32,000 nucleotides of DNA. Source: Candidatus Saccharimonadota bacterium. Its GTDB lineage: Archaea; Nanobdellota; Nanobdellia; Pacearchaeales; GW2011-AR1. The stretch lies in assembly GCA_026002795.1 (NCBI GenBank), contig BPGA01000001.1:210001-242000 (forward strand). Direction: 5' to 3'. Below are positions 2-28,665 of this stretch, in pieces. A program made the position numbers and the translations under genes. Under the pieces are notes generated by a model. That model saw only the letters and a program-made list of their open reading frames with translations. It did not search any database and had not been told where the DNA came from. Position 1 is the stretch's first letter, and each line of letters begins with the position of its first letter.

Positions 2-415
2 ATGTCTGTAAAAGATTTCAAAAATTTCTATAAAACATTTACTTCTGTATTTCCAAATGTTGTTGTATTTGCAAATATAAAACCAGATGAAGATACTCCT
101 GTAAGATTTGAAACTTCTGAATTAATTTTTGTTGGTTCTAAAAATAAAATAAATATTAGTGAAGAATTAATTAATGAAAACTATAATAAATTACCGGAAA
201 TTTCCAAGCAACAGCTAAATCTAATAAGATTATCTTCAGGTTCTGAAATTTATCATTTATTTGTTTTTAAAAGTGAACAAATGAAAGGCTATGCAGATGA
301 TGCAAAAATAATTACTGATGATAATTTACTTTTGGAATTTTCAACAGCGAAACGAGTTTTAAATCAAGGTCCTAAGGAGGTGATAAATGATATTGAAAGG
401 TTTGTTTCAGAATAA
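2..415 (+). CDS. C-terminal part of a spermidine synthase-like (polyamine aminopropyltransferase-like) protein; 5' end lies outside the window
   Basis: The ORF is open to the window edge. The segments FYKTFTSVFPNVVVFAN ... IFVGSK ... IITDDNLLLEFS resemble the C-terminal region of spermidine-synthase-like and fused spermidine-synthase family proteins. The call rests on motif recollection only. Confidence 0.4.
   Translation: MSVKDFKNFYKTFTSVFPNVVVFANIKPDEDTPVRFETSELIFVGSKNKINISEELINENYNKLPEISKQQLNLIRLSSGSEIYHLFVFKSEQMKGYADDAKIITDDNLLLEFSTAKRVLNQGPKEVINDIERFVSE
376..383 (+). promoter_or_regulatory. Shine-Dalgarno-like ribosome-binding site for the giant gene, located inside the 3' end of the upstream CDS
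   Basis: GGAGGTGA lies 3 nt upstream of ATG 387. Most other genes in the window lack any such motif and instead have TATA-like boxes about 20-30 nt upstream of the ATG, which is the leaderless style. Confidence 0.55.
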
Positions 416-6400: not shown

Positions 6401-9400
6401 TACAATAACAGCAAATAATTCAAATCCATTTAGGCTTTATTGGAATGGTGATGTAATTGCAAAAGCAAGCACTTTACAAAACTGGTACACTATAAGATTC
6501 TTAGGATCAAACAACACAATAGACAACTTAATTTTAACAAATATGGGAGAAGGATTCTTCCCAGCAGCGACGCAGATAGGTGTTTTAACAAATATAAGAC
6601 CAAGTGGAATTCAAAAAGGTGGGTTAATGCTTGAAGGTAATGCAAATTCTACAATAACTAGCTTAGAAGTTCAGGAAGCTACAAATGATATACTTGTTCA
6701 AAATTATACAGGTACAACAAACTTAATTAATGCAAATTTGAATTTCAGTAATATAAACTGGACAACAGGTACATTCTCTGGAAAAATTAACAGAAAATAC
6801 GATTATGAGCCAACAGTAACAGATAGTGCTGGAATACCTATTTCAAATACAAGTATGGTTTTATTAGATACTAGAGGAGAAATTATATTTGACTTGTTTA
6901 CAGATTCTTTAGGAAAAATACCAAAGCAAACAATAACAAGAGCTATTTATGATTATAACTTTAAGACAGGAGATGATAGAGGTCCACATACTCTAAAAAT
7001 AAAGAAATACGGAAAAACTTTCCAGTCTTTAGCAAAGCAATTCTCTGCAGCAACAATTGAAACATTACAGTTAACAAATAATCCATTCATAAATAGAACA
7101 GAGGCTCAGGCAAAAAATCAAACAGGAATAAAATTCAATCCTCCAATAAGAGTACCATATGGAGCTGAAATATATCAAAACTTTAATACAACAGGAAAAC
7201 TTAATAACTCTCCTATAACACAATCAGAATTCTTTGCAGTATTTGGATTTGATGGTGTTAATGAAAATAGAAAACTTACTCTTGTTACAGGTAGTCCTAG
7301 TGCAAATGGAGAGTTTAGTGTAAATTATGCAACAGGAGAATTAATTTTCTTCAATGATCAAACCGGCCACAATGTAACTCCTGTTTATAGTTATGGAGGA
7401 AATATTACAATTTCTACAGGAACTGCTTCACAAAATTGTATTAGCATGAGCAATCTTTATGATTACATGCAAGCAAACCTTTCAGATGTTATTACAACAG
7501 TTGATGGAATTACATATACAATGTTTGTAAACCTTATAATAGGAAATAACACTGTGGGAGGGTGTATTGTTGATCCTAAGGCATCTATAGTGTTTGAAGA
7601 TGGCTATACTTACAGCTTTAGTCCTATAGGTGGTTATATTGATTTAGCAGGAATAACTGCAGGAGGCGGAACTTCGGGAAGTGGAATTAATCCATTAAGT
7701 ATAGTAGATTCTGTTGGTTCACAGTATAATCCTGGAGATGTAGTTGATGTATTTTCAACAACTTACGAATCCTCAACAGGAAATTTAATTGATGCAACTG
7801 TAAATGTAACAATATTTTATCCAAATAATAGTATTTTAGTAAGTGGTATATCAAATAAAATATCTACTGGATTTTATAAGTTTAATACAACTCTTCCAGA
7901 TAATTCTCCTTTAGGAACTTATGGAATTTTAATAAGAGCTAATGACTCTTCTGGTAATGTTGTTAATGATGTTCTTTCATTTAAAGTTGAACAAAAACAA
8001 ATTTCTTCTGGATTTGCTCTTAATATGTTTAACACAATAGGAAGTACTTATGGTTTTGGTGATGTAGTAAAGTTATTCACGACAACAGTAAATTCTTCTG
8101 GCAACCTAGTAAACTCAACAGTTAATGTTGCTGTATTCTATCCTAACAATACTTTGTTAAATTCTGGGCAGTCTTCTTTAGTCTCTACAGGAAGATTTGA
8201 ATACAGCTTTATTGCTCCAACAGTTGAAGGAACTTATAGAATAAATGTAGATGCAAATTATTCTGGAAACGAAGCGCACGATACAGAATCATTTATAATT
8301 TCAGCTACAAGTTCTGGCGGTAGTGTATCAACTCCTCAGATTTATGTAGAGGCACCTTCTGTAGTGAATGTTAATACGAACTTTAGTATAGTCTCTCTTA
8401 TAAACAGTGAAAGTGGAATTCCTGTAAATTGTGATTCTGGAGCAAATTTGACAATAAAAGATAGCTTAAATGGTGTTAATGTTTTAAATGAAACCCCAAT
8501 GACAAACTTTGCTCTTGGTCTTTACAATTACACCTATTTAGCATCAACACCTTCAAGTTATTTAGCAATAGTTGATTGTATAATCTCGAATGTAGAGTAT
8601 AAAGGAATAAAAGCATTTTCGACACAAGGAGTTCCTCTTCCAAAAAAAGCTGTTGTTGAAATGTCTGATTTTGATGAGGTTTTAGCTGGAAAGAATTTCA
8701 GAGCAAAAATCTGGATATTTGATCAAAATGGAGTTCCTATAAATGCAGATTCTACACCAACAATAACTCTTTATGATCCTCTAAGAAATATTATTGTTCA
8801 GAATGTATCTATGACACAAATAAGTACTGGAATTTATGAGTACAACTTTACAACTTCTTCTGGTCTAACTGGTGGAGTATGGGAAGCTATTGCAAATGTT
8901 GTTGTTAATGGTATAAACTATCAACCTTCTGACTTTTGGGAATTAGAATCAAGTCCAGCTCAAGTTAAGATTAATAGTATTGTAGATAATACAATACCCA
9001 CAATAACAGCAGATGTAACAATAACAAATGAGGGTTCTGGAGCTCAAGAGTATCAGTATGAGTATTGTATAGTTTCTGAACAAACTAATCAGTGTGGTGG
9101 AGATGATGATATTGATTACGCGTCTGGAGCAAAACTATTAAATCCAGGAGAAAGTTTCAATACTTTGTTAACTTTAGACGGTGTAACCTCTCCTGGAGAT
9201 TATTATTTCAAAATTGTTGTTTATTTTGGAACAGAAAAAAGTGGGGCTTCTCAATTATTTACAGCTGTAGAAGAAGGCGCACCAACACCAGCACCTGCAC
9301 CTAGCGCTCCTTCTGGAGGTGGTGGGGGAGCTGCTCCAATAACACCTCCTGAAATTGTGAAAGAAGAGAAACCAACGGGTAAATTGTACTTATTTAATTT

Positions 9401-9983
9401 AAATATAGATATAATAAGTTTAAGGGCTTTAACATTGCTCCAAAACTCTATTGAAACTAATAAAGAGTTTTTAACATCAAAACAAATATTTATAGACTTT
9501 TCATCGCTAAACCCAACAAGAGATGAACTTATTCTAGAGACCAAAACAAACATAACTGACTTTTCATCAATTAAAGGAGAAAAAGACGTTGTGTTAGAAC
9601 ACTCTATAGAAGATCCAAATGGAAAAGTTTATGTATCTAGCTTTGAAACAAGAAAAATAAACAATTCAGAGATAGTAATAAAGGAAATTAAAATTCCTGC
9701 AAGATTGTTGAGTGTTGGCAATTATCTTGTTGTTGCTAAGTTAACATACAATAATGAAACCTTTATTGGTAGAGATGTATTTGCTATTGTAAGCAAAGAA
9801 CCAGAAGCAAAAATTGAGAGTATAAGCATATGGATTTTAATTATTGTTTTAATTTTATCGATAATATTAGTTATTACAATAATAAGATTGATTATTAAAA
9901 AACAAGCATATAAAAGAAAAATTGAACAGAGATTGCAGGAAAAAGAAAGTTTAAAAAAAGTAGAAAGGTATATTAAAGAATAA
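387..9983 (+). CDS. Giant (3198 aa) secreted, C-terminally membrane-anchored, probably heavily N-glycosylated multi-domain surface protein (adhesin / S-layer-like)
   Basis: Uninterrupted 9.6-kb ORF. The Shine-Dalgarno sequence GGAGGTGA at 376-383 lies just upstream of the ATG at 387. An N-terminal hydrophobic signal (MTLIFIAFALFALIFLVY..ASA) is present. N-X-S/T sequons are very dense, and there are many Cys residues. Repeated Ig-like modules are visible. A Pro/Thr/Ala/Gly linker (APTPAPAPSAPSGGGGGAAPITPP, nt ~9270-9353) precedes a single C-terminal TM helix (ISIWILIIVLILSIILVITII, nt ~9825-9899) and a short basic tail. Confidence 0.85.
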   Translation: MILKGLFQNKKGLIQKSMTLIFIAFALFALIFLVYNSKYASAAKSDQFFIGNFTCESFEDALLWSAVGQKSAPTNSYFGWVPAVGCNSSINTVGPKACDIHKIQSFVRYSNIGTANSLTTGQVYAQIANTTQSNETNPSSANFTLARYFARLNETVVAGDVLGPRYECGIASDTTSINRTCQVNGSGYDNSTFNYSVRLFADGAANGKTRALIDVFNIKYDWCWTPIIYDAVVTPDIADNETTFTFTINVTNPGATTNVSLFTAPLGSNEWVQEGATQTCIDCAQKKLTFNVNFGNRIGKRIFKFNATDGTYGTEAGNPAHLGTATNECLDTDNDCQFEVTQAAAAQGTPNIINETVNGVQSGAVEGWGTNWTFSVNVSNPPDGAGDINVTLFVNTGSGFIQKASANCTAPCSSSTKFTFFVDDFQCSDISSAQYRFTATNLNGTTTVTHPFTIERDDVIIEHIQGNNSIANRSGNQIDLLIVRVFDSDKAPSGAYIGSGTNVTFNVKFDDVNFDAGTNRTTNSSGYANYSFDPTCSPTKYQVGNREWKASTSGDSCYKDVTSSILNLSIAGDIILTFNEPDGSSNFTQEDEITFLGATTDDCGDALVTTVKYYANSSEDSFACTSTTQIGANAFQCVYTTSLSDTRGYYNTTMLANRTLHYDNQTSNVGNPGLFYLFPRKKLTNPTANPTAEGWGKPNWNFSVLASSGDIDNVLQVNLFMAQSVNPTTQCTSPTCQNQTPIICDAVAGCSNQLVTYYRNFTASDQGTWFFQFKFNDTELTSTSGTEFSVVVEKDDTNISYGGQGNATTVIKDTQPQNLSVRVFDLDKNSYNVTLPSANVTFKLLDPGYAGGEKIIGYALTNETGHATFLFNVTECNFQQGTQKWIGEILSTEPNYKPSKSENFTITINLPGCEATVSVENVITPTETFQNINFTINSTIAAFISTANDVNVTLNVPSGWIVGPSATQSLGSVVPGTPKTVSWTVNATSYGRFNVSVFANSSDAGNDTLDSSNFQVYKEELKGTALSPTLPSIVQAGGNITASWQCSVGDYRVATLNINANTSSSPTTIRVLTYNGTDFVDVLHSKSVDTNNTIKTIKVPLLSKQIDSNETGFCNVKIFNLGSNSINITDISLEAYYNETVSVRDVQASVNGVNTTGIESSETLFNVSAILANSINQSFLANVTLNITNSSGVVFTSTNNNINIPALGSIQTNFININTSNWSVGNYSIEVYAVGNFTKANNKTEILIFNNVEIYADSTKYICNSTTETFNVTIFHPFTDTIQYNISLEMPSGWSYSGAQTVNISTIGNHSFIFNITSSNAAAENATINATINYSYPGINKLKKTSFNIEEGNNIPILEIIRESPRVVSSNTEFVSRLIVYNKGCALANSISLTEKVSSGWTAYTPSIDGVLGGIADIPKGEIRYTENDLGTIRAKEYKVLSYFIFSPSGLNEIGKLRYNLTWGSRNNYEPTEFTINTSKYTKESHLSYNIRAVGSFKDRSAEKDENQLYEFNVTNIGDFNITNATWNVSLSIPNECSPSNYTGIFNSTTRKITWPLGTLNVSNTKSFFLNLNCTVENRFVLVAEGTNDTRTQTSFSNNTGIGCSFSSGNECSSVSSFTFSKPSNARYEKLSSVNATIFYNFTDFKMTVGEGAINFSDDFNKFRILWQNYSITTPDGTSGTVVANYTLDSSEQDSFVNSARNIGVRAYVDATSSAKGNVTLQKIDYTWDHGKLFNESQNLFIDIHPFIFDLPTPVLQTPLNNSLQAAVPVGLSWEAISAPQGINITYYVFGDSTNASTLLDVITENLYLWRDLGATQGTFYWKVIASDGTQNKSSEIRQFTLDLCQPNTNFAFALNYPMSYNLTTDTITVWGSNGTGFTAMGNNESNPITFKNIFEFGQAVRGVCAVTNPSSGSYVILSRLELGNVTDPLNTTFVKTTGESLSFNKQLQLNFNATLISGQLTQGGSPFGGSTLSFSGLDAVNQEEGEFYLKPGSKLRLYDTGVLHTITANNSNPFRLYWNGDVIAKASTLQNWYTIRFLGSNNTIDNLILTNMGEGFFPAATQIGVLTNIRPSGIQKGGLMLEGNANSTITSLEVQEATNDILVQNYTGTTNLINANLNFSNINWTTGTFSGKINRKYDYEPTVTDSAGIPISNTSMVLLDTRGEIIFDLFTDSLGKIPKQTITRAIYDYNFKTGDDRGPHTLKIKKYGKTFQSLAKQFSAATIETLQLTNNPFINRTEAQAKNQTGIKFNPPIRVPYGAEIYQNFNTTGKLNNSPITQSEFFAVFGFDGVNENRKLTLVTGSPSANGEFSVNYATGELIFFNDQTGHNVTPVYSYGGNITISTGTASQNCISMSNLYDYMQANLSDVITTVDGITYTMFVNLIIGNNTVGGCIVDPKASIVFEDGYTYSFSPIGGYIDLAGITAGGGTSGSGINPLSIVDSVGSQYNPGDVVDVFSTTYESSTGNLIDATVNVTIFYPNNSILVSGISNKISTGFYKFNTTLPDNSPLGTYGILIRANDSSGNVVNDVLSFKVEQKQISSGFALNMFNTIGSTYGFGDVVKLFTTTVNSSGNLVNSTVNVAVFYPNNTLLNSGQSSLVSTGRFEYSFIAPTVEGTYRINVDANYSGNEAHDTESFIISATSSGGSVSTPQIYVEAPSVVNVNTNFSIVSLINSESGIPVNCDSGANLTIKDSLNGVNVLNETPMTNFALGLYNYTYLASTPSSYLAIVDCIISNVEYKGIKAFSTQGVPLPKKAVVEMSDFDEVLAGKNFRAKIWIFDQNGVPINADSTPTITLYDPLRNIIVQNVSMTQISTGIYEYNFTTSSGLTGGVWEAIANVVVNGINYQPSDFWELESSPAQVKINSIVDNTIPTITADVTITNEGSGAQEYQYEYCIVSEQTNQCGGDDDIDYASGAKLLNPGESFNTLLTLDGVTSPGDYYFKIVVYFGTEKSGASQLFTAVEEGAPTPAPAPSAPSGGGGGAAPITPPEIVKEEKPTGKLYLFNLNIDIISLRALTLLQNSIETNKEFLTSKQIFIDFSSLNPTRDELILETKTNITDFSSIKGEKDVVLEHSIEDPNGKVYVSSFETRKINNSEIVIKEIKIPARLLSVGNYLVVAKLTYNNETFIGRDVFAIVSKEPEAKIESISIWILIIVLILSIILVITIIRLIIKKQAYKRKIEQRLQEKESLKKVERYIKE

Positions 9984-14949: not shown

Positions 14950-15321
14950 ATGAAAAAAGGAAGAAAAGTTACTGGTGGGAAATATAGAAAATCAAGGAAA
15001 AAGAAACTTTACGAATTGCCTGGACAACAAATTCTAGTGAGGTTGGGTGAAGAAAAAAGAAAAACAGTCAGGGTTACAGGAGGAAATAAAAAAACTTTTT
15101 TGGTGAAATCTAATGTTGTGAATGTTAGGGTAAACGGAAAAACAAAAAAAGTTAAGATAGAAAATGTTTTAGAAACTCCTTCTAACAGGTTTTTAGCTAG
15201 ACAAAACGTAATAACAAAAGGAGCAATCTTAAAAACAGAAATAGGAAAAGTTAAAGTAACAAACAGGCCAAGCCAAGAAGGAATGATTAATGGGGTGTTA
15301 ATAGAAGAAAGTAATTCATAA
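14950..15321 (+). CDS. rps8e: 30S ribosomal protein S8e (eS8)
   Basis: GRKVTGGKYRKSRKKKLYELPGQ ... VRVTGGNKK ... ITKGAILKTEIGKVKVTNRPSQEGMINGVLI matches the archaeal S8e pattern. Confidence 0.9.
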   Translation: MKKGRKVTGGKYRKSRKKKLYELPGQQILVRLGEEKRKTVRVTGGNKKTFLVKSNVVNVRVNGKTKKVKIENVLETPSNRFLARQNVITKGAILKTEIGKVKVTNRPSQEGMINGVLIEESNS

Positions 15322-15558: not shown

Positions 15559-16482
15559 ATGGTTTATGTTAAGAGATGTCCTGAGTGTGGTAGTGTAAAC
15601 TTAACTTATGATTCTCATCTTGGTGAGATTATTTGTAATGATTGTGGTCTTGTAGTTGAGGAGAAGATGGTTGATACAGGAGTAGATCTATCTGGAAAGT
15701 TTGATAAATCAGAAAAAAAAGGACGTGCTGGAGCTCCAACAAGTATTCAAAAATTTGATAGGGGATTAACAACAAATGTCGGTGAAATAGCCGATATCTA
15801 TAAATTAGATCCAAAACAATCAAGAACTTTTATAAAACTAAAGAGATGGCAAGAGAGGGTTTCTACAAGTATCGAAAGAAATTTAAGACTTGCAATGGCT
15901 GAATTAAGAAAAATTTCTTCTTACTTAAACCTTCCAAATGTAGTAAGAGATGAAGCTGCAAGAATTTATAATTATGTTTTGCAGAGGGGTTTTGTAAGAG
16001 GTAGAAGTATGGAATCTGTTGTTGCTGCTTGTTTATATGCTGCATGCAGAAGTTACAATATACCTAGAACTCTTGATGAAATGGCAACTGCTTCTGATGT
16101 GGAAAGAAAAGAGATTGGAAGAACCTACAGGTTTATAATAAGAAAACTCGGAATTAAGATAACACAAAGCTCGCCAAAAGATTACATCTCAAGATTTGCT
16201 TCTGTCTTAAAACTTTCTCCAAAAACACAAAATGATGCTTTGAAGATTTTAAAAAGAGCAGATGAAGTTGAACTTACTTCTGGAAGAGGTCCAGCAGGTA
16301 TTGCAGCAGCTGCTCTTTATGTTGCGGCATTAATGAATGATGAAAAGAAAACCCAAAGAGAGGTTGCAGATATTGCTGGTATAACAGAAGTTACAATAAG
16401 AAATAGATACAAAGAACTTATAGAAAAACTCGGACTTGAAGAAAAAATTAAAGCAAAAGAAAAAGAAATCGATAAATCTTAA
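15559..16482 (+). CDS. tfb: Transcription initiation factor IIB (TFB)
   Basis: The N-terminal zinc ribbon is CPECGS...CNDCG. Two cyclin-like repeats are visible (RSMESVVAACLYAACR... and GRGPAGIAAAALYVAAL...). The C-terminus reads QREVADIAGITEVTIRNRYKEL. Confidence 0.93.
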   Translation: MVYVKRCPECGSVNLTYDSHLGEIICNDCGLVVEEKMVDTGVDLSGKFDKSEKKGRAGAPTSIQKFDRGLTTNVGEIADIYKLDPKQSRTFIKLKRWQERVSTSIERNLRLAMAELRKISSYLNLPNVVRDEAARIYNYVLQRGFVRGRSMESVVAACLYAACRSYNIPRTLDEMATASDVERKEIGRTYRFIIRKLGIKITQSSPKDYISRFASVLKLSPKTQNDALKILKRADEVELTSGRGPAGIAAAALYVAALMNDEKKTQREVADIAGITEVTIRNRYKELIEKLGLEEKIKAKEKEIDKS

Positions 16483-16663: not shown

Positions 16664-19600
16664 TTAGCTGCAAATATCGCTGAAAAGTGAATTTATTTTA
16701 TTTCTATTTGATTGGCTTAAAACACTCTCAACATAGTACTTAGTTGCTTCTGTACACCCCCAACCATTATAACTTCTTAATGCAGCTTTCCATCCAGTGT
16801 ATTTTGTGTTAGTGCATGTAAATACTCTACCATCTTTATTTTGATTGTAGCTGTTAATCAAGATGTCAATAGCATAATTTACGTTTTCATTAAAGTCAAG
16901 CACATTTACATTTTGATGAGCTTTTCTATTTATTTGCATAATTCCGAAACTTTCCTCACCATTTAAATTTTTTATAACTTTTTCCTCGTTGTTGTTACAG
17001 TAAAGAGGGTTGTTATTTTCTTGAAAGCCTGAAATCCCTGTTGAAGTAAACTCACCACAGTGGAAGATATTGCTTTCTATATTAGCGACCATTAGTGTAA
17101 GACATTCAAAATTTTTAACACCTGTATCTTGTAAAACTTTTTCATCTGAAATTCCTTTTTGTGTTTTAGCTTCTTGCGCTAATTTTACTATTTCATAACC
17201 CAAAACTTTTTGACATTCCTCTCTTGTCGAGCATCTAAGTTGTGGTGTTTGGCTTGTTTGCTGTTCTTGATTTGGTGTACCTGGTTTTTGTGTTGTCTCT
17301 TGTTCTGTTGATGGAACATATACCTCAATTGGTTTTTCTCTTATTCCAAGTGTAAAGATTAACTTTATTCCTTCAAAAGAATTTTTTCCGTCTAACAAAC
17401 TTTTTTCTGATGAGAAGTTATGTATAGAAAACCAAACATTGTAATTAGATTTGTTTAAGGTAGATGCAGACCATTGCCATTCGCTTCCGTTGTACCTAAA
17501 ATAAAAAGGAAATCTATAATCTCTTGGAATTCCTGGTATAAGAGATTTTAAATCTTCAATACTTATTGCATTTGTTTCTTGGTTTATTTCTAATATACCA
17601 TCAGGATTATATCTTACATTATCTGTAGAAAGCTTAGCATCTTTTTTAATTAATCCAAAACTAACTCTGTTTAGAATTCCACCTTCATCATTAGTATTTG
17701 TTCTTTGAATTAACAATGAAAGGCCAGTATTGTAAGTTGATTGTGAAAGTTTTTTTATGAACTCTTTATCTTTGTTTGAAAGTTCTGGAATTAAGACTCT
17801 TTTTGTAATGTCTTCTCCTGTTGTTTTTCCTGCAAATTCTGCTAGTTTTGAATCATACCAATTTTTTCCGTCATTACAATCTTTAACACACCAATACCAA
17901 GAATTTGTCTCTTCTGAAAAAGCATAATTGATTCCTCCTGGCTCAAACTTAAGAATAGGATACTTATCTCCTAAATTGATTTTTTTAGTGGTTAATCCAG
18001 ATATTGCTTCTGTAGTTTCTGTAGTTGATGGTCTTTCTAATTTTCCTAATTGTTTTTCTCTTTCTTGTTGTTCTCTTATTTGCTGTTCTCTTTCTTGTTG
18101 TTCTCTTATTTTTTTGTAAGCATCTAATGCAATTTCAGAAAATGAATTTCCTCTTAACAATATCAACAAGCCTTTTTCATAACTAAAGAAAACTTTGTTT
18201 ATGTTGTTGTTTATTAAAGAAATTCTTTCTTGAGGAATTTTATCAGAAATTTCTCTAAGAAGATTTCTAAAATCTTTTTCGCTTAAATAGCCTTGCTCTT
18301 TTTTCAAAATTTCTAAAGAATTTTTATTTGTCTCTTCTAAAGTTTTTTGCTCGAGATTAACTGATTTTATAGCATTTTTTACACTTTCTGAATCAAGCCA
18401 GCATTTAATTTTTGGATCAGAACAATATCCGACTTCTTTCCATCTCGCATTTTCTGTACCTACAAATGGATCAGATCCTTTTCCAGGATTATCTGTTGCA
18501 CAAATTCTAATAATTCCTCTATTGTAAATAGCTGGATCAATTGATTCTGAAACTCCTTCTTGAACATTTGGATTTAAAGTTGGATTTATTAAAGGAAAGA
18601 CATTAGGTGTTCCTGAAACACACTCTCTTTCTGTTTTAATGTTAGTTTTTGAAGCTTGAGAAGAAATATATGCTTCTGTTATGTAATTTATGCCAAAATC
18701 AGAAGTAACTTGTTTAAATCCACATTCTTCTTTTCCATTAATAATAATACACATCTCATTATAGCCAGAAGGCGCTGTAAAGTCTACTGTCCTTGTTATG
18801 TAATCTCCTGCTTTTAATGAACCTCTCGCAATTGTTCTTATTGGATTGTCTTGATAAAAAGAGCCTGGTTTTCCTCTAAGATAAACTTCATAAAATGCAG
18901 GAAAATCTTTTCCAGCATAAATATGATAGAATACTTTATATTGTGAAACTGGAGGATTTGTTGCTGTGGTGAAAGGAATTTCTTCAAATCTTCCATAAAA
19001 TTGTGGTGGTGAATCAGGAGCTGTTAACAAATCAATAAACTTTCCATCTCCTGGATAACTAAATGAAAATGCTTTTTTACAAATAGCACTTCCTACCTCT
19101 TGTGTAGAACGTGATTTGAAAGCTTTAAACGAATCCTCTGCATAATACTGTGTGAAAAATGTTACTGAATCTGAAACTTTTTGGAAAGCATCTTGCACAG
19201 AAAGATACTCTCCTCCGCCTTTTGAAGATCCACTTAAAGCAGAACCTATTGCTTGAGGAACAATATAATTTATTAAAGGAGTTGCTTGTCTCCAGCCAAA
19301 TTCACATAAATAAATAGAATATATTTCATCACATATTCCAACTGTTTTCCCTTTTTCAAGACTTTCTTCTAAACAACTTTTATAAGAATCAAGAACAGTA
19401 TTAAAAGAATCAAGTCCTGCATGAACTCCTGTAAGGCAAATTGGAATCTTAACTTCTGGGAAATTTGGAAGGCAAAGGAAAATGCTTCCAAAAATTCCTG
19501 ATTGAACAACATTTTCTACAGGATATTTTCCTCCTAAATCACATCTTGAACTTGGACATACAAAAGGATCGCAAACATTGAAAAGCAAATTACACTCTTT

Positions 19601-22600
19601 TGGAGACATAATGTCTTGACATTGAATTCCTGGTACAGATGTTGCTGGTGCTCCAACACTAACAATTTGACCGAAAACTCTAACCCTATCGACCCCCGGT
19701 TTGTATTGTTTTGAAACTTCTGCAATAGCTTGAATTGCTTGTGTTGTTTTTCTTGCTGCTTCGTCTGAACTTAATCCTGGAAACTGGTTGTATGGCTGGC
19801 CTGTTGCAAGATTTATTAATTGACAAATATCGTCTCCACCAGTGTTTTCCTCAAGACCATTGCTTCCTACATTGCATAGCCAAAAACTTGAAACTCTACC
19901 AGATTCGTCATAAGCTCTTATATTTGAAGCTATTGGTAGAGTTGATTTAATTGAAGCATACCAACCATTAACTAGATCAAAAGGAACAATTGCGGGCAAT
20001 CCTTTGTAAGGATCTCTTTCATAATACCTAACTTTAGGATTAAGATACTGGTTTTTATATTGAGAAGGATCTATTGCACTAACAACAAATCTTTCTTTTA
20101 TTCTGTTTTTTACAACGTTATCTTCAATTTTTTTGCCTGATAAAGAATAAACTTCTGAAACAATGTATTTTCCAGAAGAAATTTCTTCTAAACCCAAAAC
20201 ATATTGATTACCAAGATAAGAAACAATCATAGATGGTGTTCCTGCAGGAATATCTCCAATTGCTTGTGTTGTTTTTCCTTTGTTGTAAAATACTTCAATA
20301 GAGTTTTCAGAAGGGACAATTGTTGTTTGAAGTCCTTTCAATTCTTGAGGAAGCTTTTCTGACAATCTTGTCACCTCTAAATAATTTTTTGACTCTAACC
20401 AAACATCTGATAGTGTAGCTTCAATTTGTTTTTTTGCTCTTTCTCTAATTTCCGGATTTTCAGAGTTTAATAGCCTTGAATTAAGTTGTAATTCTTTCGC
20501 TTGTGAAATTGAAATGGTGTTTGGATTTATTGAAGAGACAATTTCTGAAATTGGGATATCTTTATTTTCTATGTTTATTGTTCCTTGTTGGAAATTTTGC
20601 TCAAGATTTTTTTGTAATTCATTTTTAAAATCATTATCTATATAGTCTTCTTTAAAGGCAGTAGTATTTATTATGTCCTCTCCTAAAAACCCGTCTTTTA
20701 TTTTATGAAGAGATTGTATTTTCTTTATTTCTTCGTTTTGAGTAGAAATTGCTTTAGAGTATTCTTCAACTTCTTTTTCTATTGTATCAGAATTCTCCAA
20801 AAGGCAACTGTCAACATTTCTATATTTTCCTAAACTAACTTCTCTTTCACAAATTTCAAACCATCCACCGCTGTCTCTCATGACTTTTTGTCTAGCAACT
20901 CCTTCACCACCTAGATTAGAAATAAAGTTTTTAAAAGTCAAAACACTGCCTGTAGCAAGACAAGCTGTTTTTCCAATTCTAACAACATCCTCAAGTTTAG
21001 AATTAATATTTTGTAGTTTGTTTATTGTATTATTTAAGCTCTCAATCTTTTCTTTAGTTTTTTCTGGGGTTAATTTTATGGCTCTTTTTTCAATTCCTAT
21101 TTTAAATGAAAATGTTGCGTTTGTTTGTGCATAATCTATTTTTGGATTTATTGAAACTTTTGCAAATTTCTTTAAATTTATTTTTTGAAGAGTGAATATG
21201 TAATTACTATCAAAAGAATCTGGAGTATTGATTACTAAAGTTTTTGTATCATCTATAAATTCCTTAATTTCTCCTTTTATTGATTTTTTAAGGTTTAATC
21301 TTACTTTAGCTGAATTTTCGTCAAGATCAAGAAGCTGAATTGTTTCTTCTGTTTCTGGATTTATTGATTTAATTTCGTTTTTTCTTAAACTTAATGTTCC
21401 AAGAACCTCTCCTGTTGTTTTATTTCTAACTAAAATTTCTGCTCCAAACTCATTAAATGTTGGGGTTATAATCCTATCTAATGAAATTCTATGGATTTTT
21501 CCGTTTATAATAACCTCTGCAACTTCTTTATCAGTATTTGCAAGGAGAGAATTATCATCACAAATTTTAGGTTTTATTGAGTTTGGAAAGGTTTCTTTAA
21601 GCCTTTCACACTCTTCAAGAGCTGTTCTTTTTTGGCCTAAAGAATTTAAAAATTCTATTTTAGCTGATAATGTTTTCTCTCCTAAAGTTGCCTCTCTAGA
21701 AGCATCATTAATATCTTTTTCATTTGAAAAGCTGTTTATAATTTCATCATAATCTTTTAAAGCATTTTTATAGCTATCTTCAAATTTTTTATCATTTAAA
21801 TAAAGATCTAAATTCTCATCCTGGGGTCCTGAAAAACCAATAAATTTTATTTTTTTTCCTCCATTTTCAACAAACTTCTCAGTAATTTCTTGAGTAGACA
21901 AAGGTTCAAAAGACTGGTCCTCTATTATGTGCCTTAAAAAATTTTCAGTTCTACTTAATCCAAACTTTAATACAGATGAAACAAGCGAACCTAAATTTTT
22001 TATTTCTCCAGGAGTATATCTTCCAAAAAATGAATTAAATGAGTCTAAATCCTGATCTGAAAGTTTTTCTGTTGATGATCTAAGAGCTGCTACAATAACC
22101 ATTAAATCTTCTTTATTTTCATTTTGATTCACATAAACAAGATAAACTGATCTACCATCATTTAATGAATAAAGTTTATCTCCTAAACTATAACTTTTAC
22201 TCTCGCCATCAATTTCAAGTTCTATTTTTGGATTTATTGACAAAATGAATGTTTTTGCTCCATCATCTTCTCTACAAGAAATTTTTACTTTTTGAACAAT
22301 CCCTTTTTTATCTAAATCTAAAATCCTACACCTGTTATCTAAAAAAGAAGCTCCTTCTTTTAATTCAAAAGAATTTCCATCTACATTTAACAAAGCTCTT
22401 TCGTCAGGGGATGTTATATCTTCTAGTTTTAAAGAAAGAGTGCCTAAACAATAATTAAAACCAGGAAGATAAATTTGATGAGATTCTTTATTTTTTTCTA
22501 AATCAAGATTTACTTTTGCTATTATTCTTTTTTCTCCAGATTTTCCAATTTTATATGCTTCTCTGTCTGAATAAACAGAAATTGTTGCGCTCTTATCGTC

Positions 22601-23284
22601 TATACTTTCAGCCCTTAGGTATCCTCTTCCATCCCAAAAAGAATATTTTACAAAATTTTGATCCCATTCTGATTGAGACATTTCAGGAAGATAAAAAACA
22701 GCTCTACCAACCCCAAAGGCATTTTCTATATCATAAGTTATTCTTGCTGTCAAATTTCCCTCAACAAAATCAGGCATTTTTGATTCGTTTGGTTGTCTTT
22801 TTAGAACAATAATAGCATATCCTAAATTGTTGAATACTGGAGAGTCTATTCTTTTTTCTGGTTTTGCAAGAGCTGCTCTAGCTGGTTGATAACCAACTCC
22901 TACAACTTCTGGAGGAACTCTTCCAGAAAGTGATATGTGTTTTATAGATTCTATTTCAATTAATGGATTTAATTGTGTTGCAACAATTGGACAAAAAACA
23001 GGAACATTTTGCTCTTCCAAAAGATCGCTTCTTACAACAGCAGGAATACAACCAGAGGGAGAAACCTGCAATAAGAAGTCCTGGCCAGCGCCACACATTT
23101 CTTTGTTAAATAATGGAAAATCTACTTTACCGAATTCTGATCTTATTGTTGGATTTTGAGTATAAGCGCTAAAGCTTCTTGCATATTGTGCTGAAAGAGT
23201 AGCTGTAAAAATTATTATAGAAAGTATGGAGACAATTAAAATAAATATTTTTTCTATAACTTTTTTCTTATTTTTGATTTTCAT
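16664..23284 (-). CDS. Giant (2206 aa) secreted protein with a C-terminal lytic transglycosylase / lysozyme-like (SLT-type) domain
   Basis: Uninterrupted 6.6-kb ORF with an N-terminal signal (IFILIVSILSIIIFTATLSAQ). The middle is long, K/E-rich and in part coiled-coil-like. A Cys-rich hydrophobic module lies at nt ~19195-19640. A Q/T/P linker precedes the last ~190 aa. That final region contains ANIES ... FGIMQI ... LDFNENVNYAIDIL ... RSYNGWG, matching the four conserved blocks of SLT domains. Confidence 0.85.
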   Translation of the reverse strand: MKIKNKKKVIEKIFILIVSILSIIIFTATLSAQYARSFSAYTQNPTIRSEFGKVDFPLFNKEMCGAGQDFLLQVSPSGCIPAVVRSDLLEEQNVPVFCPIVATQLNPLIEIESIKHISLSGRVPPEVVGVGYQPARAALAKPEKRIDSPVFNNLGYAIIVLKRQPNESKMPDFVEGNLTARITYDIENAFGVGRAVFYLPEMSQSEWDQNFVKYSFWDGRGYLRAESIDDKSATISVYSDREAYKIGKSGEKRIIAKVNLDLEKNKESHQIYLPGFNYCLGTLSLKLEDITSPDERALLNVDGNSFELKEGASFLDNRCRILDLDKKGIVQKVKISCREDDGAKTFILSINPKIELEIDGESKSYSLGDKLYSLNDGRSVYLVYVNQNENKEDLMVIVAALRSSTEKLSDQDLDSFNSFFGRYTPGEIKNLGSLVSSVLKFGLSRTENFLRHIIEDQSFEPLSTQEITEKFVENGGKKIKFIGFSGPQDENLDLYLNDKKFEDSYKNALKDYDEIINSFSNEKDINDASREATLGEKTLSAKIEFLNSLGQKRTALEECERLKETFPNSIKPKICDDNSLLANTDKEVAEVIINGKIHRISLDRIITPTFNEFGAEILVRNKTTGEVLGTLSLRKNEIKSINPETEETIQLLDLDENSAKVRLNLKKSIKGEIKEFIDDTKTLVINTPDSFDSNYIFTLQKINLKKFAKVSINPKIDYAQTNATFSFKIGIEKRAIKLTPEKTKEKIESLNNTINKLQNINSKLEDVVRIGKTACLATGSVLTFKNFISNLGGEGVARQKVMRDSGGWFEICEREVSLGKYRNVDSCLLENSDTIEKEVEEYSKAISTQNEEIKKIQSLHKIKDGFLGEDIINTTAFKEDYIDNDFKNELQKNLEQNFQQGTINIENKDIPISEIVSSINPNTISISQAKELQLNSRLLNSENPEIRERAKKQIEATLSDVWLESKNYLEVTRLSEKLPQELKGLQTTIVPSENSIEVFYNKGKTTQAIGDIPAGTPSMIVSYLGNQYVLGLEEISSGKYIVSEVYSLSGKKIEDNVVKNRIKERFVVSAIDPSQYKNQYLNPKVRYYERDPYKGLPAIVPFDLVNGWYASIKSTLPIASNIRAYDESGRVSSFWLCNVGSNGLEENTGGDDICQLINLATGQPYNQFPGLSSDEAARKTTQAIQAIAEVSKQYKPGVDRVRVFGQIVSVGAPATSVPGIQCQDIMSPKECNLLFNVCDPFVCPSSRCDLGGKYPVENVVQSGIFGSIFLCLPNFPEVKIPICLTGVHAGLDSFNTVLDSYKSCLEESLEKGKTVGICDEIYSIYLCEFGWRQATPLINYIVPQAIGSALSGSSKGGGEYLSVQDAFQKVSDSVTFFTQYYAEDSFKAFKSRSTQEVGSAICKKAFSFSYPGDGKFIDLLTAPDSPPQFYGRFEEIPFTTATNPPVSQYKVFYHIYAGKDFPAFYEVYLRGKPGSFYQDNPIRTIARGSLKAGDYITRTVDFTAPSGYNEMCIIINGKEECGFKQVTSDFGINYITEAYISSQASKTNIKTERECVSGTPNVFPLINPTLNPNVQEGVSESIDPAIYNRGIIRICATDNPGKGSDPFVGTENARWKEVGYCSDPKIKCWLDSESVKNAIKSVNLEQKTLEETNKNSLEILKKEQGYLSEKDFRNLLREISDKIPQERISLINNNINKVFFSYEKGLLILLRGNSFSEIALDAYKKIREQQEREQQIREQQEREKQLGKLERPSTTETTEAISGLTTKKINLGDKYPILKFEPGGINYAFSEETNSWYWCVKDCNDGKNWYDSKLAEFAGKTTGEDITKRVLIPELSNKDKEFIKKLSQSTYNTGLSLLIQRTNTNDEGGILNRVSFGLIKKDAKLSTDNVRYNPDGILEINQETNAISIEDLKSLIPGIPRDYRFPFYFRYNGSEWQWSASTLNKSNYNVWFSIHNFSSEKSLLDGKNSFEGIKLIFTLGIREKPIEVYVPSTEQETTQKPGTPNQEQQTSQTPQLRCSTREECQKVLGYEIVKLAQEAKTQKGISDEKVLQDTGVKNFECLTLMVANIESNIFHCGEFTSTGISGFQENNNPLYCNNNEEKVIKNLNGEESFGIMQINRKAHQNVNVLDFNENVNYAIDILINSYNQNKDGRVFTCTNTKYTGWKAALRSYNGWGCTEATKYYVESVLSQSNRNKINSLFSDICS
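18056..18110 (-). repeat. Perfect 25-nt direct repeat with 30-nt period (imperfect 15-nt sub-period x4) encoding REQQEREQQIREQQEREKQ
   Basis: The + strand sequence ttctctttcttgttgttctcttatt occurs at 18056-18080 and again at 18086-18110, with the spacer tgctg between the copies. The repeat is in frame inside the 2206-aa CDS. Confidence 0.9.
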
Positions 23285-23297
23285 TTTATGTAAATAC

Positions 23298-25145
23298 TCA
23301 TTTAAAATTTATATCTAGGTTTGTTGTATCTAATAAATCATAATTTTCTTGTAACTGTTCAAGTGATTCTGGTTCTTGGAATGATTTAACATTAATTTCA
23401 ATGCTTTTTGAATTTATTAAATCGCTTTCTAAAATATATTGTTGTGTTTTTCCTCCTCCTGAAATAACATTTGTGATTAGTTGTTCAGGTATTTGAATAT
23501 CAAAACACCTCTCTTCTTTAGCTCCAAAAACCCCAAAAATTCCTGATCTTGGAACTTCTATACATTGTTGAGATATTGTATTGCCAAATTTTAAAGAAGA
23601 GTTTTTGTAAATAATAACTTGAATTTCGTAAGATCCCTCGCTAAGATCTATGTTTTTTTGTTCTGGATAAAACAATGATAAAGAGTTTTGATCTGAAATA
23701 AAGTTAATAACTGCATTTCCTGAATATCTTCTTCCATCTAAAAGAAGCTCTATATTTTTATTGTAAAGTTTTTCCATAATTATATCTACTTTTCCAGGCA
23801 GATTTGTTGAGAGAAGATATCTTGCTGTACTGTAGCCTGGTGCTTGAGCAACAACATAACCATTAATGCATTGCGGGAAGTTTTCTTTTAAATTTCCGTT
23901 ATCGGATGTTTCTCCAATAAAGCATCTATTTGATAGACATTCATATGATATGTTTGACTTAACTGGTATTCCTTCTTCATTAATTACTCTAACTTCGACT
24001 TCTGTGTTTTTGAATTGACAAACTTCTGGAACTGGTTGTTGGAATGCTGTAATATTTTTTTCTTCTCTTGGTTTATTATTTTCTATTATTACTGCAAATG
24101 GGAACTGAAAAATCTCTTGATCTTTTTGAACTTGAACCAAAACAGGATATTTTATGTTATAGACAAAATGATATGGAACATAACAAAAACCTAGAATCCC
24201 TAATCCTGGCTGATTTCCGATTGGTGTTGAAACCATTAAATTACCTTGAGTCGGATAAACTTCTAAATTATGCGGCCAATTTTTTGAAGTTAAAAAACTA
24301 ACTTTCTCTGAAATTCCAAAATCAACTGTAAAGTATTTTTCTTGTTTATTGTTAATAGAAATTATGTTATGCTCTAAAGAGTTTTGTATATTGTCAAAAA
24401 CCTCATCTGCATTCCAAATTAAAGGACTACAACTAAGCTCAAAACCATCTACAGGAGCGTAATTTGTTAAAACATCGATTGTATAATTTTCAAGAATTTT
24501 ATTTTCTTTTAGTTGATTATAAACTTTTAAAGAAGAATCATAAAGTTGGCCTAATTTGGAATTTATGGAGGTTTTGTGATTATTTATTATTACAGACGAA
24601 TTTTCTTTTTCAATGTTGAGATTTGTATTTAGATTTAATTCAACTTTATCATCTTTAATGTTAACTTTAACACTTGAGGGCTCATCTAAAGAAATTTCAA
24701 ATCCTTGATCATTATAAGTATTAAAATTACAATTTTTTATTGAGTCTTTAATGTAGTTGGAAATTTGTTCTTCAATTTGTTTTTTTGTTGGAACCTGTTC
24801 TCTATCAAAATTATTTCCTGACACATAATACCAATAAGGTATTGGATTTCCTAAAAAGTTTAGTTGTGATGAAAATGGCATATAATCAGATCCGGGTTCA
24901 AATTCTGGTAAGTAAATATAACCTCCTTGAGTTTCTGCAATGTTTATTGCTGTTGAAAGGTCTGTTTCTAAGCAAGTTAAAAAAGAAGAATAAACTGGTT
25001 GAAACTCAACAGGAACCTCTTGAATTGATATTTTTCCTCTTAAAAATACAAAAAGAACAATTGCAGCTAAAATCAACAAAGAGATTATAATGAATATTGT
25101 AATTTGGCCTTTTTTTGACACCTCTTTTTTGTTAAAAAACCTCAT
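23298..25145 (-). CDS. 615-aa secreted protein with a class III (archaeal type IV pilin-like) signal peptide; function unknown
   Basis: The N-terminus MRFFNKKEVSKKGQITIFIIISLLILAAIVLFVFL has a basic region, then K-G-Q-I-T-I, then a hydrophobic helix, which is the prepilin-peptidase-type pattern. The stop codon lies 13 nt upstream of the 2206-aa gene start, on the same strand. A CarboxypepD_reg-like stretch (VEVRVINEEGIPVKSNISYEC) is present. Confidence 0.75.
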   Translation of the reverse strand: MRFFNKKEVSKKGQITIFIIISLLILAAIVLFVFLRGKISIQEVPVEFQPVYSSFLTCLETDLSTAINIAETQGGYIYLPEFEPGSDYMPFSSQLNFLGNPIPYWYYVSGNNFDREQVPTKKQIEEQISNYIKDSIKNCNFNTYNDQGFEISLDEPSSVKVNIKDDKVELNLNTNLNIEKENSSVIINNHKTSINSKLGQLYDSSLKVYNQLKENKILENYTIDVLTNYAPVDGFELSCSPLIWNADEVFDNIQNSLEHNIISINNKQEKYFTVDFGISEKVSFLTSKNWPHNLEVYPTQGNLMVSTPIGNQPGLGILGFCYVPYHFVYNIKYPVLVQVQKDQEIFQFPFAVIIENNKPREEKNITAFQQPVPEVCQFKNTEVEVRVINEEGIPVKSNISYECLSNRCFIGETSDNGNLKENFPQCINGYVVAQAPGYSTARYLLSTNLPGKVDIIMEKLYNKNIELLLDGRRYSGNAVINFISDQNSLSLFYPEQKNIDLSEGSYEIQVIIYKNSSLKFGNTISQQCIEVPRSGIFGVFGAKEERCFDIQIPEQLITNVISGGGKTQQYILESDLINSKSIEINVKSFQEPESLEQLQENYDLLDTTNLDINFK

Positions 25146-27180: not shown

Positions 27181-28665
27181 CTATCTAATGTGGATTACAG
27201 GATAAATTTTTTTATAATATTTAATTGCTTCATTAAGTCTTGATTTTGTTTCTGCATAAATTGTTAAAATCTTATCGCCTTTCTTTACTTTTTCATTTAA
27301 ATGGTAATGAATAAAAACTCCAGCAAATTTATCTATTGGACAACCTGCAACTCTTGCCAGGTCGTTTATTTTTTTATTTTCTATCCTAAAGATTGTACCT
27401 GATTTTTTTGCGACAAAAGAGTGATTTATTTTAGATGGTTTTAGATTTATAACTCTTCCTCCTTGAGCTTCTATAATTTCTTTAAATTTTTTAAAAGCTT
27501 TTCCTGAATAAAGAATTTGTCTTGCTAAATTTTCTCCCCGGCCTTTTTTCGATTTTCCTGCAAGCTCTAAAATTTGACCAGCTAAAAAAATTGCTTTATC
27601 TTCCAAATCTTTAGGACCTTTTTTTTCTGGATTTAAAACATTTATTACATCAATAAGTTCAAGAACAGGCCCAACACCATTTCCAATTGGCTGATTTCCT
27701 AAAGTTAAAACACACTTTAACTTTTTTTTAAAATATTTTCCTAGAACTTCAAATTTTCTTTTTAAAGCAAGTGCTTTTTGTTTGTTTACTTTTGCGCCTT
27801 CACCATATGGAATATCTATAAGAATTATTTTACTTCCTGCAGCGATTTTTTTTGATAAAATAGAAGCTAAAAGCTGTGGTTCTGGATCTATTTTTAACAT
27901 TTTTTCTATTCTAATTATTTTTTCGTCAGCGGGAACTAAACCTAAAGAACCGCCCCAAACCATACACCCGTTTGTTTTTTTTATTATTTTTTTAATATCT
28001 TTAATTGAAAACTCAACTTTTGCTATTGTTTCAATTACATCAGCAGTACCTGCTGCACTTGTTATTGCTCTAGAAGAATTTTTTGGTATGGTAAGTCCTG
28101 CTGCTGCACATATTGAAACAACAATTGGTGTTGTCCTATTTCCTGGTATTCCACCAATAGAATGTTTATCAACAACAATCTTCTTATTTATTTTTAATGT
28201 TGAGCCTGTTTTAACTATTGAATTTATCAAATAAGTTATTTCATTTAAAGACATTCCATTTTTATAAACAGCAGTTATAAAAAGGGCTATCTCTGCTTCT
28301 GAAAGTGAATTATTAACAATATCTTCCATTATTTCATCAAGTTCTTTCTGTGTAAGTGCTTTATTATTTAATTTCTTTTTTATAAAATTAAGAGCATATG
28401 GGCTATTAGAAAGATTTACTTCAACTTTTTCATTATTTTTAAAATTTAAATAACTCTTTAACTCGTGAGAAATTCCTATCTCGTTTTTTTTGACTAAAGT
28501 TTCTGTTATATCCACAACGCTTGAAACTTCTTTAGATTTTTTATGTTTTGATTTTATTGTTATTCTATCTAAAGGATGTACTCCTATTTTTGAGGCTGTT
28601 TTAGAATTAATCATAGCGACTGGAATTCCTGCAGACCATTTTAAAAATTTAATTCTTAGTTCCAT
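27181..28665 (-). CDS. deoA: AMP phosphorylase / thymidine phosphorylase family protein (archaeal long form with N-terminal extension)
   Basis: 494 aa. The segments HSIGGIPGNRTTPIVVSICAAAGLTIPKNSSRAITSAAGTADVIE ... MVWGGSLGLVPADEKI ... IPYGEGAKV show the glycosyl-transferase family 3 fold. The additional ~80-aa N-terminal domain is characteristic of archaeal AMP phosphorylases. Confidence 0.8.
   Translation of the reverse strand: MELRIKFLKWSAGIPVAMINSKTASKIGVHPLDRITIKSKHKKSKEVSSVVDITETLVKKNEIGISHELKSYLNFKNNEKVEVNLSNSPYALNFIKKKLNNKALTQKELDEIMEDIVNNSLSEAEIALFITAVYKNGMSLNEITYLINSIVKTGSTLKINKKIVVDKHSIGGIPGNRTTPIVVSICAAAGLTIPKNSSRAITSAAGTADVIETIAKVEFSIKDIKKIIKKTNGCMVWGGSLGLVPADEKIIRIEKMLKIDPEPQLLASILSKKIAAGSKIILIDIPYGEGAKVNKQKALALKRKFEVLGKYFKKKLKCVLTLGNQPIGNGVGPVLELIDVINVLNPEKKGPKDLEDKAIFLAGQILELAGKSKKGRGENLARQILYSGKAFKKFKEIIEAQGGRVINLKPSKINHSFVAKKSGTIFRIENKKINDLARVAGCPIDKFAGVFIHYHLNEKVKKGDKILTIYAETKSRLNEAIKYYKKIYPVIHIR

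Follow-up and report, generated by a model that had tools for sequence, protein, structure and literature searches.

Which activity resides at the C-terminal end of a giant archaeal protein that is annotated as hypothetical? The question is raised by a stretch of 32,000 nucleotides (nt) of contig BPGA01000001.1 (positions 210,001 to 242,000 of the forward strand; this whole stretch is referred to as the window), in which an open reading frame (ORF) of 2,206 amino acids (aa) ends in a cysteine-rich domain resembling GH23/SLT enzymes, the superfamily of lysozymes and lytic transglycosylases. The ORF is identical (100%) to the NCBI entry 'hypothetical protein KatS3mg001_248 [Candidatus Pacearchaeota archaeon]', which derives from a metagenome-assembled genome (MAG); the organism is accordingly a member of the DPANN archaea. 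Our analysis suggests that the domain is the catalytic C-terminal cassette of a giant Pacearchaeota surface protein and that it most likely cuts bacterial peptidoglycan, a reading that we consider probable. The features on which this reading is built are the following.

16664..23284, minus strand: giant ORF, 2,206 aa, 40 Cys, predicted extracellular
17240..17314, minus strand: Q/T/P-rich low-complexity linker, PSTEQETTQKPGTPNQEQQTSQTPQ
16667..17239, minus strand: C-terminal GH23/SLT-like (lysozyme-like) putative catalytic domain, aa 2016-2206, Cys-rich long-insertion subtype
17075..17077, minus strand: codon GAA of Glu2070 (domain Glu57, in ANIES), putative catalytic acid, invariant, at the C-terminal end of predicted helix 46-58
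16928..16945, minus strand: G-I-M-Q-I-N, corresponding to the G-L-M-Q motif of family-1 lytic transglycosylases

Conserved residues at the C-terminal end of the giant protein

A preliminary description of this DNA, made from the sequence alone, placed a lysozyme-like domain with four motif blocks in the last ~190 aa of the ORF and a Q/T/P-rich linker beside it. The ORF exists, the linker is present, and the quoted strings read exactly as given within the last ~191 aa: both NVNYAIDILINSY and ALRSYNGWG are found in the domain, and ANIES lies at nt 17072-17086 (minus strand). An alignment of 45 homologous C-terminal domains of the long-insertion subtype (A1) revealed that Glu57 of the domain (aa 2070) is invariant (45/45). 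The conservation anticipated for the Glu of ANIES was thus observed, and this residue aligns with the catalytic Glu of the short-spacing relatives (alignment A2, see below) and of MltC.

Eleven other positions are invariant among the 45 sequences (F46, C63, C83, G101, N121, W152, R157, Y159, N160, G161 and Y171). M103, Q104, I105 and N106 are kept at 90% or more, and conservation is also seen at G125 and L129, which follow the conserved N121. Motifs II (G-L-M-Q), III and IV (A-Y-N-x-G) are present in A1 in the canonical order. For motif IV some doubt about the register is left: in four relatives the Pfam SLT alignment finishes exactly at '..YNG', and a weak alignment with goose egg-white lysozyme (GEWL) sets AYNAG on 'KYTGW'.

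Homology to the SLT/GH23 superfamily

Searches that used the domain of the window protein alone were uninformative. A word-indexed homologue search found no homologue, phmmer yielded noise alone in the PDB (Rpo10, GH98) and a search of NCBIfam gave nothing relevant. A Pfam match to AEP-TOTE (E 0.047), seen in one of the 45 A1 members, was discarded as chance. With the full-length protein as query, a total of 756 homologues were obtained, mostly of 1,900-2,900 aa, and the named ones belong to Pacearchaeota or Nanoarchaeota. The same C-terminal domain occurs in 63 of the 120 best full-length homologues (blastp 1e-23 to 1e-52; hmmsearch) at 30-50% identity.

Profiles built from these relatives carried the comparison further. 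The A1 profile found goose-type lysozymes as the best matches in the PDB (E 0.04-0.4), and PF01464 was matched by 12 of the 45 A1 members (best 1.7e-4). An exhaustive HMMER search of 1.84 billion representatives with the A1 profile returned 505 proteins at E<=1e-3, 82 of them at <=1e-30; among the weaker matches were proteins with canonical short spacing between the motifs ('QESSC...GLMQIN'). Nine of ten short-spacing relatives tested pass the Pfam SLT gathering score (34-58 bits). An alignment of 18 such relatives (A2) matched A1 in hhalign with a probability of 99.9% (E 2.5e-37), Glu57 falling on the invariant Glu of A2. The A2 profile in turn retrieved MltC (5.7e-11), EtgA (1.4e-7), Slt70 (4e-7), MltE (7e-6) and g-type lysozymes (7.5e-5) from the PDB, and c-type lysozymes too; the 'iqESs' of A2 is aligned on the 'QIESS' of MltC.

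Because this chain of profiles from A1 through A2 to MltC, Slt70 and MltE holds, homology of the domain to the SLT/GH23 superfamily, with an equivalent catalytic Glu, is well supported by the sequence comparisons, though the single sequence stays below threshold. The domain is recognisable solely via a profile of its family. The profile search proposed in the preliminary description accordingly had two outcomes: the direct match was sub-threshold and the transitive chain was strong.

Predicted fold

AlphaFold2 run on A1 gave a model with pLDDT 97.0 and pTM 0.93. The model shows helices at domain residues 8-30, 34-41 and 46-58, the third of which carries Glu57 at its end, then a beta-rich region at 60-110 and helices from 118 on. 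Foldseek against the PDB placed g-type lysozymes at the top (prob 0.96-0.98, E 0.013-0.08), followed by the Ralstonia GH23 chitinase, fungal muramidases, MltE, MltF and Slt70; GH23-type enzymes and lytic transglycosylases make up almost all of the top 40 PDB matches. Among viral models, lytic transglycosylase or LT_GEWL domains account for nearly all the named matches at the top, the best-ranked of them having prob 1.0 (E 0.004-0.02), for instance those of PRD1 P7, of phage internal core proteins and of tape measures. The comparison with both PDB and viral structures is in line with the lysozyme-like fold that had been proposed, at modest TM-scores of 0.38-0.48. Since the TM-scores reach only these values, the model is consistent with a fold that is lysozyme-like in class yet strongly remodelled. 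Glu2070 would, by its predicted position, lie in a cleft.

The long insertion and its cysteines

A subfamily-specific segment lies between the catalytic-type Glu and the G-x-M-Q motif.

16976..17047, minus strand: insertion TSTGISGFQENNNPLYCNNNEEKV, domain 67-90, opposite a gap in A2 in the hhalign alignment and holding the invariant Cys83 (NPLYC)

The Glu-to-Gly (G-x-M-Q) distance amounts to 44 residues in the window protein and ~31-48 (median ~35) in the subfamily. In short-spacing relatives, including P0055 and P0067, which are members of the giant family, the distance is 13-18 residues, and in MltC it is 15. The unusually long, Cys-containing spacer of about 45 aa reported in the preliminary description is thus borne out, its count of three spacer Cys is not: two (C63 and C83) lie in the spacer, and the third that was cited (FEC) precedes the Glu. 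DSSP assignments on the predicted model place strands and bridges at residues 65-106, a range that spans the insertion region, and by their position the ~24-28 extra residues would enlarge the beta-lobe between the catalytic helix and G-I-M-Q-I-N.

Analysis of the cysteines revealed a pattern of paired change. The domain holds eight Cys, and totals among the A1 sequences are mostly even (8, 6 or 10). C144 and C164 are lost jointly in four A1 sequences, and where C5 is missing a new Cys appears near position 80 (eight sequences) or 59 (three sequences). C5, C11 and C48 show correlated shifts from which no unique pairing is derivable; the C144-C164 pair is the only one supported specifically, by its co-loss. 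Because Cys come and go in pairs, and because the protein has a single N-terminal hydrophobic segment and 40 Cys in all, the sequence supports an exported, disulfide-bonded protein. The suggestion that disulfides stabilise the domain gains support from the joint loss of C144 and C164 and from the even totals. A second optional insert, 'GHCG...(S/P)S(N/D)...C(K/R)', follows G-x-M-Q-I-N in eight A1 domains (e.g. P0048, P0074 and P0116) and in several A2-type domains and adds two Cys; its occurrence suggests an extra disulfide-bonded loop that is gained and lost within the family.

Related Cys-rich SLT variants were also observed in other large proteins, namely P0199 (Candidatus Aenigmarchaeota, 1,820 aa, annotated as alpha/beta hydrolase) and P0204-P0256. 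Spacers in this group measure 30-47 residues, and those of the 'E-S-x-F-R-H-C-C' type carry four to five Cys. At least one variant comes from a different DPANN phylum (Aenigmarchaeota), and therefore the expanded beta-lobe also occurs outside the Pacearchaeota scaffold. To judge from these sequences, the long Cys-containing insertion is a lineage feature of DPANN SLT domains and not a peculiarity of the window gene.

Architecture of the giant protein and census of its cassettes

Upstream of the linker and the C-terminal domain, three further parts of the giant ORF were delimited.

23192..23248, minus strand: hydrophobic segment, aa 13-31, IFILIVSILSIIIFTATLS, the sole strongly hydrophobic stretch in a Kyte-Doolittle scan
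18125..23284, minus strand: core scaffold, aa ~1-1720, conserved in 120/120 best homologues
17330..17962, minus strand: optional 'middle module', aa ~1775-1985, ~210 aa, preceding the C-terminal cassette in many relatives, with any cassette type

The hydrophobic segment is presumably an N-terminal signal peptide or membrane anchor. The core scaffold is without a match in Pfam or NCBIfam. Alignment of the middle module (A4) revealed invariant Trp and Gly positions, a search of the PDB with the A4 profile found no relative, and the module may serve as an adaptor or a substrate-binding module. The window is AT-rich, with ~30% G+C throughout, the giant ORF included. Comparison of the relatives indicates a modular plan for the giant protein, in which the core is followed by the optional middle module and then by a C-terminal cassette that varies. 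Among the 120 best homologues, the cassette types were distributed as follows.

A1 (long-insertion GH23 subtype): 63 proteins
Short-spacing SLT (A2-type): 2 proteins
Canonical SLT: 5 proteins
P0023-type, with invariant Cys and His: 23 proteins
P0058-type: 5 proteins
P0083-type: 3 proteins
P0025-type, M15-like by eye: 2 proteins
Amidase_2 (P0072): 1 protein
DUF2272: 1 protein
DUF1615: 2 proteins (overlapping with the P0058-type count)

A GH23-like cassette is thus detected by profile in 70 of the 120 homologues, compared with seven that carry a precomputed PF01464 match. In 11 proteins extra sequence occurs beyond the A1-type domain. P0024 and P0038 (the latter being the SCGC AAA011-D5 contig, L024) carry VanY (PF02557), a D-Ala-D-Ala carboxypeptidase-type domain, directly after the GH23-like domain, an arrangement that by its domain content is a putative two-enzyme peptidoglycan-degrading tip. 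Pretoxin-HINT (PF07591; PT-HINT) was observed in the C-terminal region of P0035 (aa 2186-2318) and of P0048, where it follows the GH23-like domain; it is found in these two of the 120 relatives and is absent from the window protein. In the PT-HINT relatives an effector might be released by self-cleavage.

The P0023-type cassette, which is also present in P0015, P0016 and P0059 (alignment A3), has 175 aa with invariant Cys29 and His121 and was modelled by AlphaFold2 with pLDDT 92.9. Pfam gave weak NlpC/P60 matches only (three of 20 members, best 0.041), the profile search of the PDB gave nothing, and Foldseek with the model gave nothing significant, with faint CHAP/papain-like matches at E 0.17-0.9. 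Possibly the cassette is a cysteine peptidase or amidase in a new fold variant.

Reaction, substrate and alternative explanations

Goose lysozyme has Glu73, Asp86 and Asp97, which we take to be its acidic active residues. In the alignment of the family profile with GEWL, MQVD (Asp97) falls on MQIN, the Asn of which is conserved at 90% or more, and GD (Asp86) falls on 'NL' in the window protein and on GD in most relatives, so that the window domain lacks the second and third acidic residues. Lytic transglycosylases are characterised by a single conserved carboxylate and need just the one Glu. Because the Asp97 position is Asn and Asp86 is lost in the window protein, the alignment favours a lytic-transglycosylase-type, single-carboxylate mechanism over hydrolysis. 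Peptidoglycan is the proposed target because relatives bear the stem-peptide enzymes VanY and Amidase_2 on the same scaffold.

The following course of events is proposed. By means of its single N-terminal hydrophobic segment the protein would be exported and then held at, or released from, the cell. The ~1,700-aa scaffold, the ~210-aa optional module and the Q/T/P linker would present the disulfide-stabilised GH23/SLT domain at the distal end, where it would cleave the beta-1,4 bond between N-acetylmuramic acid (MurNAc) and N-acetylglucosamine (GlcNAc) in bacterial peptidoglycan with Glu2070 as general acid. The enlarged beta-lobe, with its Cys-containing insertion of ~24-28 residues, may form one wall of the substrate groove. 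In this way the archaeon would breach or digest bacterial walls, be they of a host, of prey or of necromass, in order to attach itself or to scavenge nutrients.

Several results weigh against this reading. In searches with the window domain alone, Pfam SLT (PF01464) scored 11.1 bits (E 0.3) and did not reach its gathering score of 21.3, SLT_3 scored 13.3 bits (cut-off 27; E 0.12) and a PHROG transglycosylase gave E 0.12, so that no curated threshold was passed. The Foldseek matches, with TM-scores below 0.5 and E 0.004-0.1, are weak. The 'GD' that stands ahead of G-x-M-Q in most family members is replaced by 'NL' in the window protein. A GH23 enzyme can be a chitinase, and the Ralstonia GH23 chitinase (3w6b, 3w6d) ranks among the best structural matches, with the top query TM-scores of those listed from the PDB (0.42-0.46; 3w6b at 0.46).

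The chitinase match bears directly on the substrate, which might be another beta-1,4-linked GlcNAc polymer (chitin, chito-oligosaccharides or a surface glycan of the archaeon or its host) instead of peptidoglycan, and the enlarged beta-lobe could shift specificity in that direction. The sequence-profile matches are nevertheless peptidoglycan enzymes (MltC, Slt70, MltE, EtgA and g-type lysozymes), and relatives carry VanY or Amidase_2 on the same scaffold, VanY even directly after the domain, which makes such a substrate unlikely. Loss of catalysis would leave a lysozyme-like module that binds glycan strands of the host wall as an adhesin; the absence of the second carboxylates of g-type lysozymes and the strong divergence would fit, and Castelle et al. 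(PMC8204110) suggested attachment to bacterial cell walls. The Glu-Ser pair is, however, invariant (45/45), all four transglycosylase motifs are retained at 30-50% overall identity and one Glu suffices for lytic transglycosylases; we consider a purely binding role quite unlikely.

Two further explanations look away from a bacterial target. The enzyme might remodel the archaeon's own envelope during division or the insertion of a surface apparatus, in the manner of the bacterial 'space-maker' transglycosylases EtgA and VirB1, and EtgA-type specialised transglycosylases are indeed among the A2 profile matches. GH23 enzymes do not attack the beta-1,3 links of pseudomurein, which counts against such a use. 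Moreover, a 2,000-aa tether with swappable hydrolase cassettes better suits an outward-directed tool, and murein synthesis is not known in these archaea (PMC8204110), so that action on the own envelope is very improbable. A phage or mobile-element gene for a virion-associated lysin or tape-measure-like protein might also have entered an archaeal contig recently; in favour of this, virion-associated transglycosylases joined to proteins of great length (PRD1 P7, internal core proteins and tape measures) lead the structural matches among viruses. Against this, the gene lies among housekeeping genes (TFB, S8e and S3Ae) whose arrangement recurs in two other genomes, a single archaeal lineage contains the subtype and the composition is like that of the rest of the window; a recent acquisition of this kind is the least credible of the explanations considered. 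A transfer of the SLT domain out of bacteria or phage in the distant past is conceivable. Cleavage of bacterial peptidoglycan by a catalytic cassette at the tip of a surface protein remains the preferred reading.

Distribution and genomic neighbourhood

Genome loci with the long-insertion subtype belong to Woesearchaeota, Pacearchaeota or Nanoarchaeota in 34 of 35 cases, and the single-cell genome SCGC AAA011-D5 of 2013 (L024) is among the loci found. The lone record from outside DPANN (L015, DATKUW010000047.1) is labelled as a 'Bacillota bacterium' MAG and shows 42% identity; it is probably a mis-binned DPANN contig and not a bacterial homologue. The neighbours of two distant relatives of the domain, P0238 and P0207, are nearly without annotation. 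In the window, the giant ORF is flanked by the following genes.

23298..25145, minus strand: partner gene, 615 aa, 13 nt upstream of the giant ORF, with an N-terminal transmembrane segment and 10 Cys
15559-16482: TFB gene, downstream of the giant ORF
14950-15321: ribosomal S8e gene

The 615-aa partner has no Pfam match. Two other Pacearchaeota/Woesearchaeota genomes (L037 and L038) have a homologue of it (49-57% identity) immediately upstream of their giant gene, and the partner and the giant gene probably form a conserved two-gene operon. The order partner, giant gene, TFB, S8e, LSM and MBL is conserved in two other genomes. This conserved housekeeping neighbourhood indicates a stable chromosomal gene and therefore not a recent mobile acquisition. 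Further genes of the window are S3Ae, L3 and an AI-2E transporter. Two other loci were observed in the window. A second giant ORF (387-9983, plus strand; 3,198 aa) contains MG2 (alpha-2-macroglobulin-type) and NPCBM-associated domains and is a putative surface protein. An AMP/thymidine-phosphorylase-like gene (27181-28665, minus strand; Glycos_trans_3N, Glycos_transf_3 and PYNP_C) fits the nucleotide salvage reported for Pacearchaeota.

Earlier reports and what this study adds

The novelty implied by the preliminary description does not hold, since giant murein-transglycosylase proteins of Pacearchaeota and Woesearchaeota were already reported (PMC8204110; PMC9723730). Castelle et al. 2021 (PMC8204110) described them as family fam00969, predicted extracellular proteins of 2,000-3,000 aa that are specific to these two groups, and proposed that they bind and degrade bacterial walls; as cited in that paper, earlier sightings are those of Rinke 2013 and Castelle 2015. 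Vigneron 2022 (PMC9723730) reported a 'large lytic murein transglycosylase (GH23)' in Woesearchaeota with a predatory reading, and later surveys, among them PMC10936187, give the same interpretation of the giant transglycosylase class. Pacearchaeota of chimneys, in turn, were said to lack murein transglycosylase (PMC11537232). The protein class and its interpretation are thus already established, and our results sharpen the accepted picture without changing it.

This study places a 'hypothetical' protein in the class and names its putative catalytic residue, defines a Cys-rich subtype with a long insertion that escapes Pfam and is the most frequent cassette, present in about half of the family, and provides a census of the C-terminal cassettes that are swapped on one scaffold. 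Because PF01464 flags seven of the 120 homologues and the profile flags 70 of them as GH23-like, published absences of murein transglycosylase in Pacearchaeota genomes (e.g. PMC11537232) may be false negatives. The exchange of the C-terminal module among several wall-hydrolase types suggests host-range adaptation. For DPANN archaea a life on other cells is assumed, and a murein-cutting giant surface protein would be a rare genomic clue that some of them target bacteria.

Comparison with known systems

Goose-type lysozymes (153L, 3GXK and 4G9S) are the best PDB matches by profile (E 0.04) and by Foldseek. They are like the window domain in size (~185 aa) and in being disulfide-containing extracellular enzymes, features that are predicted for the window protein; they differ from it in that Asp97 is replaced by Asn and Asp86 by Leu in the window protein, and the TM-score is ~0.4. 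With family-1 lytic transglycosylases and Pfam SLT the domain has in common the E-S motif at a helix end, G-[LI]-M-Q, the single conserved carboxylate, the hydrophobic 'N-x-x-x-G/A-x-x-L' helix and (A/S)-Y-N-G at the same position of the Pfam profile. In contrast to these enzymes, it has 24-28 residues more between motifs I and II (44 versus 15 in MltC), contains eight conserved Cys and is appended to an archaeal giant protein. For its additional N-terminal helical segment (domain 1-45) the alignments show no counterpart.

Bacterial polymorphic toxin systems resemble the family in combining a conserved scaffold with alternative C-terminal cassettes, of which there are at least eight here, and in the PT-HINT of two relatives. 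Unlike them, the window protein is without HINT, no candidate immunity gene was seen, and none is expected, the downstream gene being TFB; most of the DPANN cassettes are wall hydrolases or have no function assigned, and are not intracellular toxins. It is conceivable, though at somewhat less than an even chance in our judgement, that the ~1,700-aa scaffold serves as a polymorphic 'wall-attack' platform directed at the peptidoglycan of bacteria, an archaeal equivalent of their polymorphic toxins. Since Pfam fails to detect most cassettes, published surveys would in that case substantially underestimate the ability of Pacearchaeota and Woesearchaeota to degrade peptidoglycan.

The giant genes of Omnitrophota (bioRxiv 10.1101/2023.11.21.568195), which encode wall-degrading proteins of predatory bacteria, and phage virion proteins with terminal transglycosylase domains (PRD1 P7 and tape-measure lysins) share one design with the proposed reading of the window protein, namely a very long scaffold with a peptidoglycan hydrolase for breaching the wall of another cell. 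The scaffolds of both are unrelated to the one described here and the organism here is an archaeon, so that the likeness is a functional analogy and not family membership. The closest likeness is to the fam00969 giants. Their published descriptions, like those of the 'large GH23' proteins, rest on domains visible to Pfam or CAZy, whereas the window subtype lies below the Pfam threshold; by its features, the window protein matches fam00969 in lineage, in the size class of 2,000-3,000 aa, in predicted extracellular location, in its terminal transglycosylase-type domain and in the proposed role.

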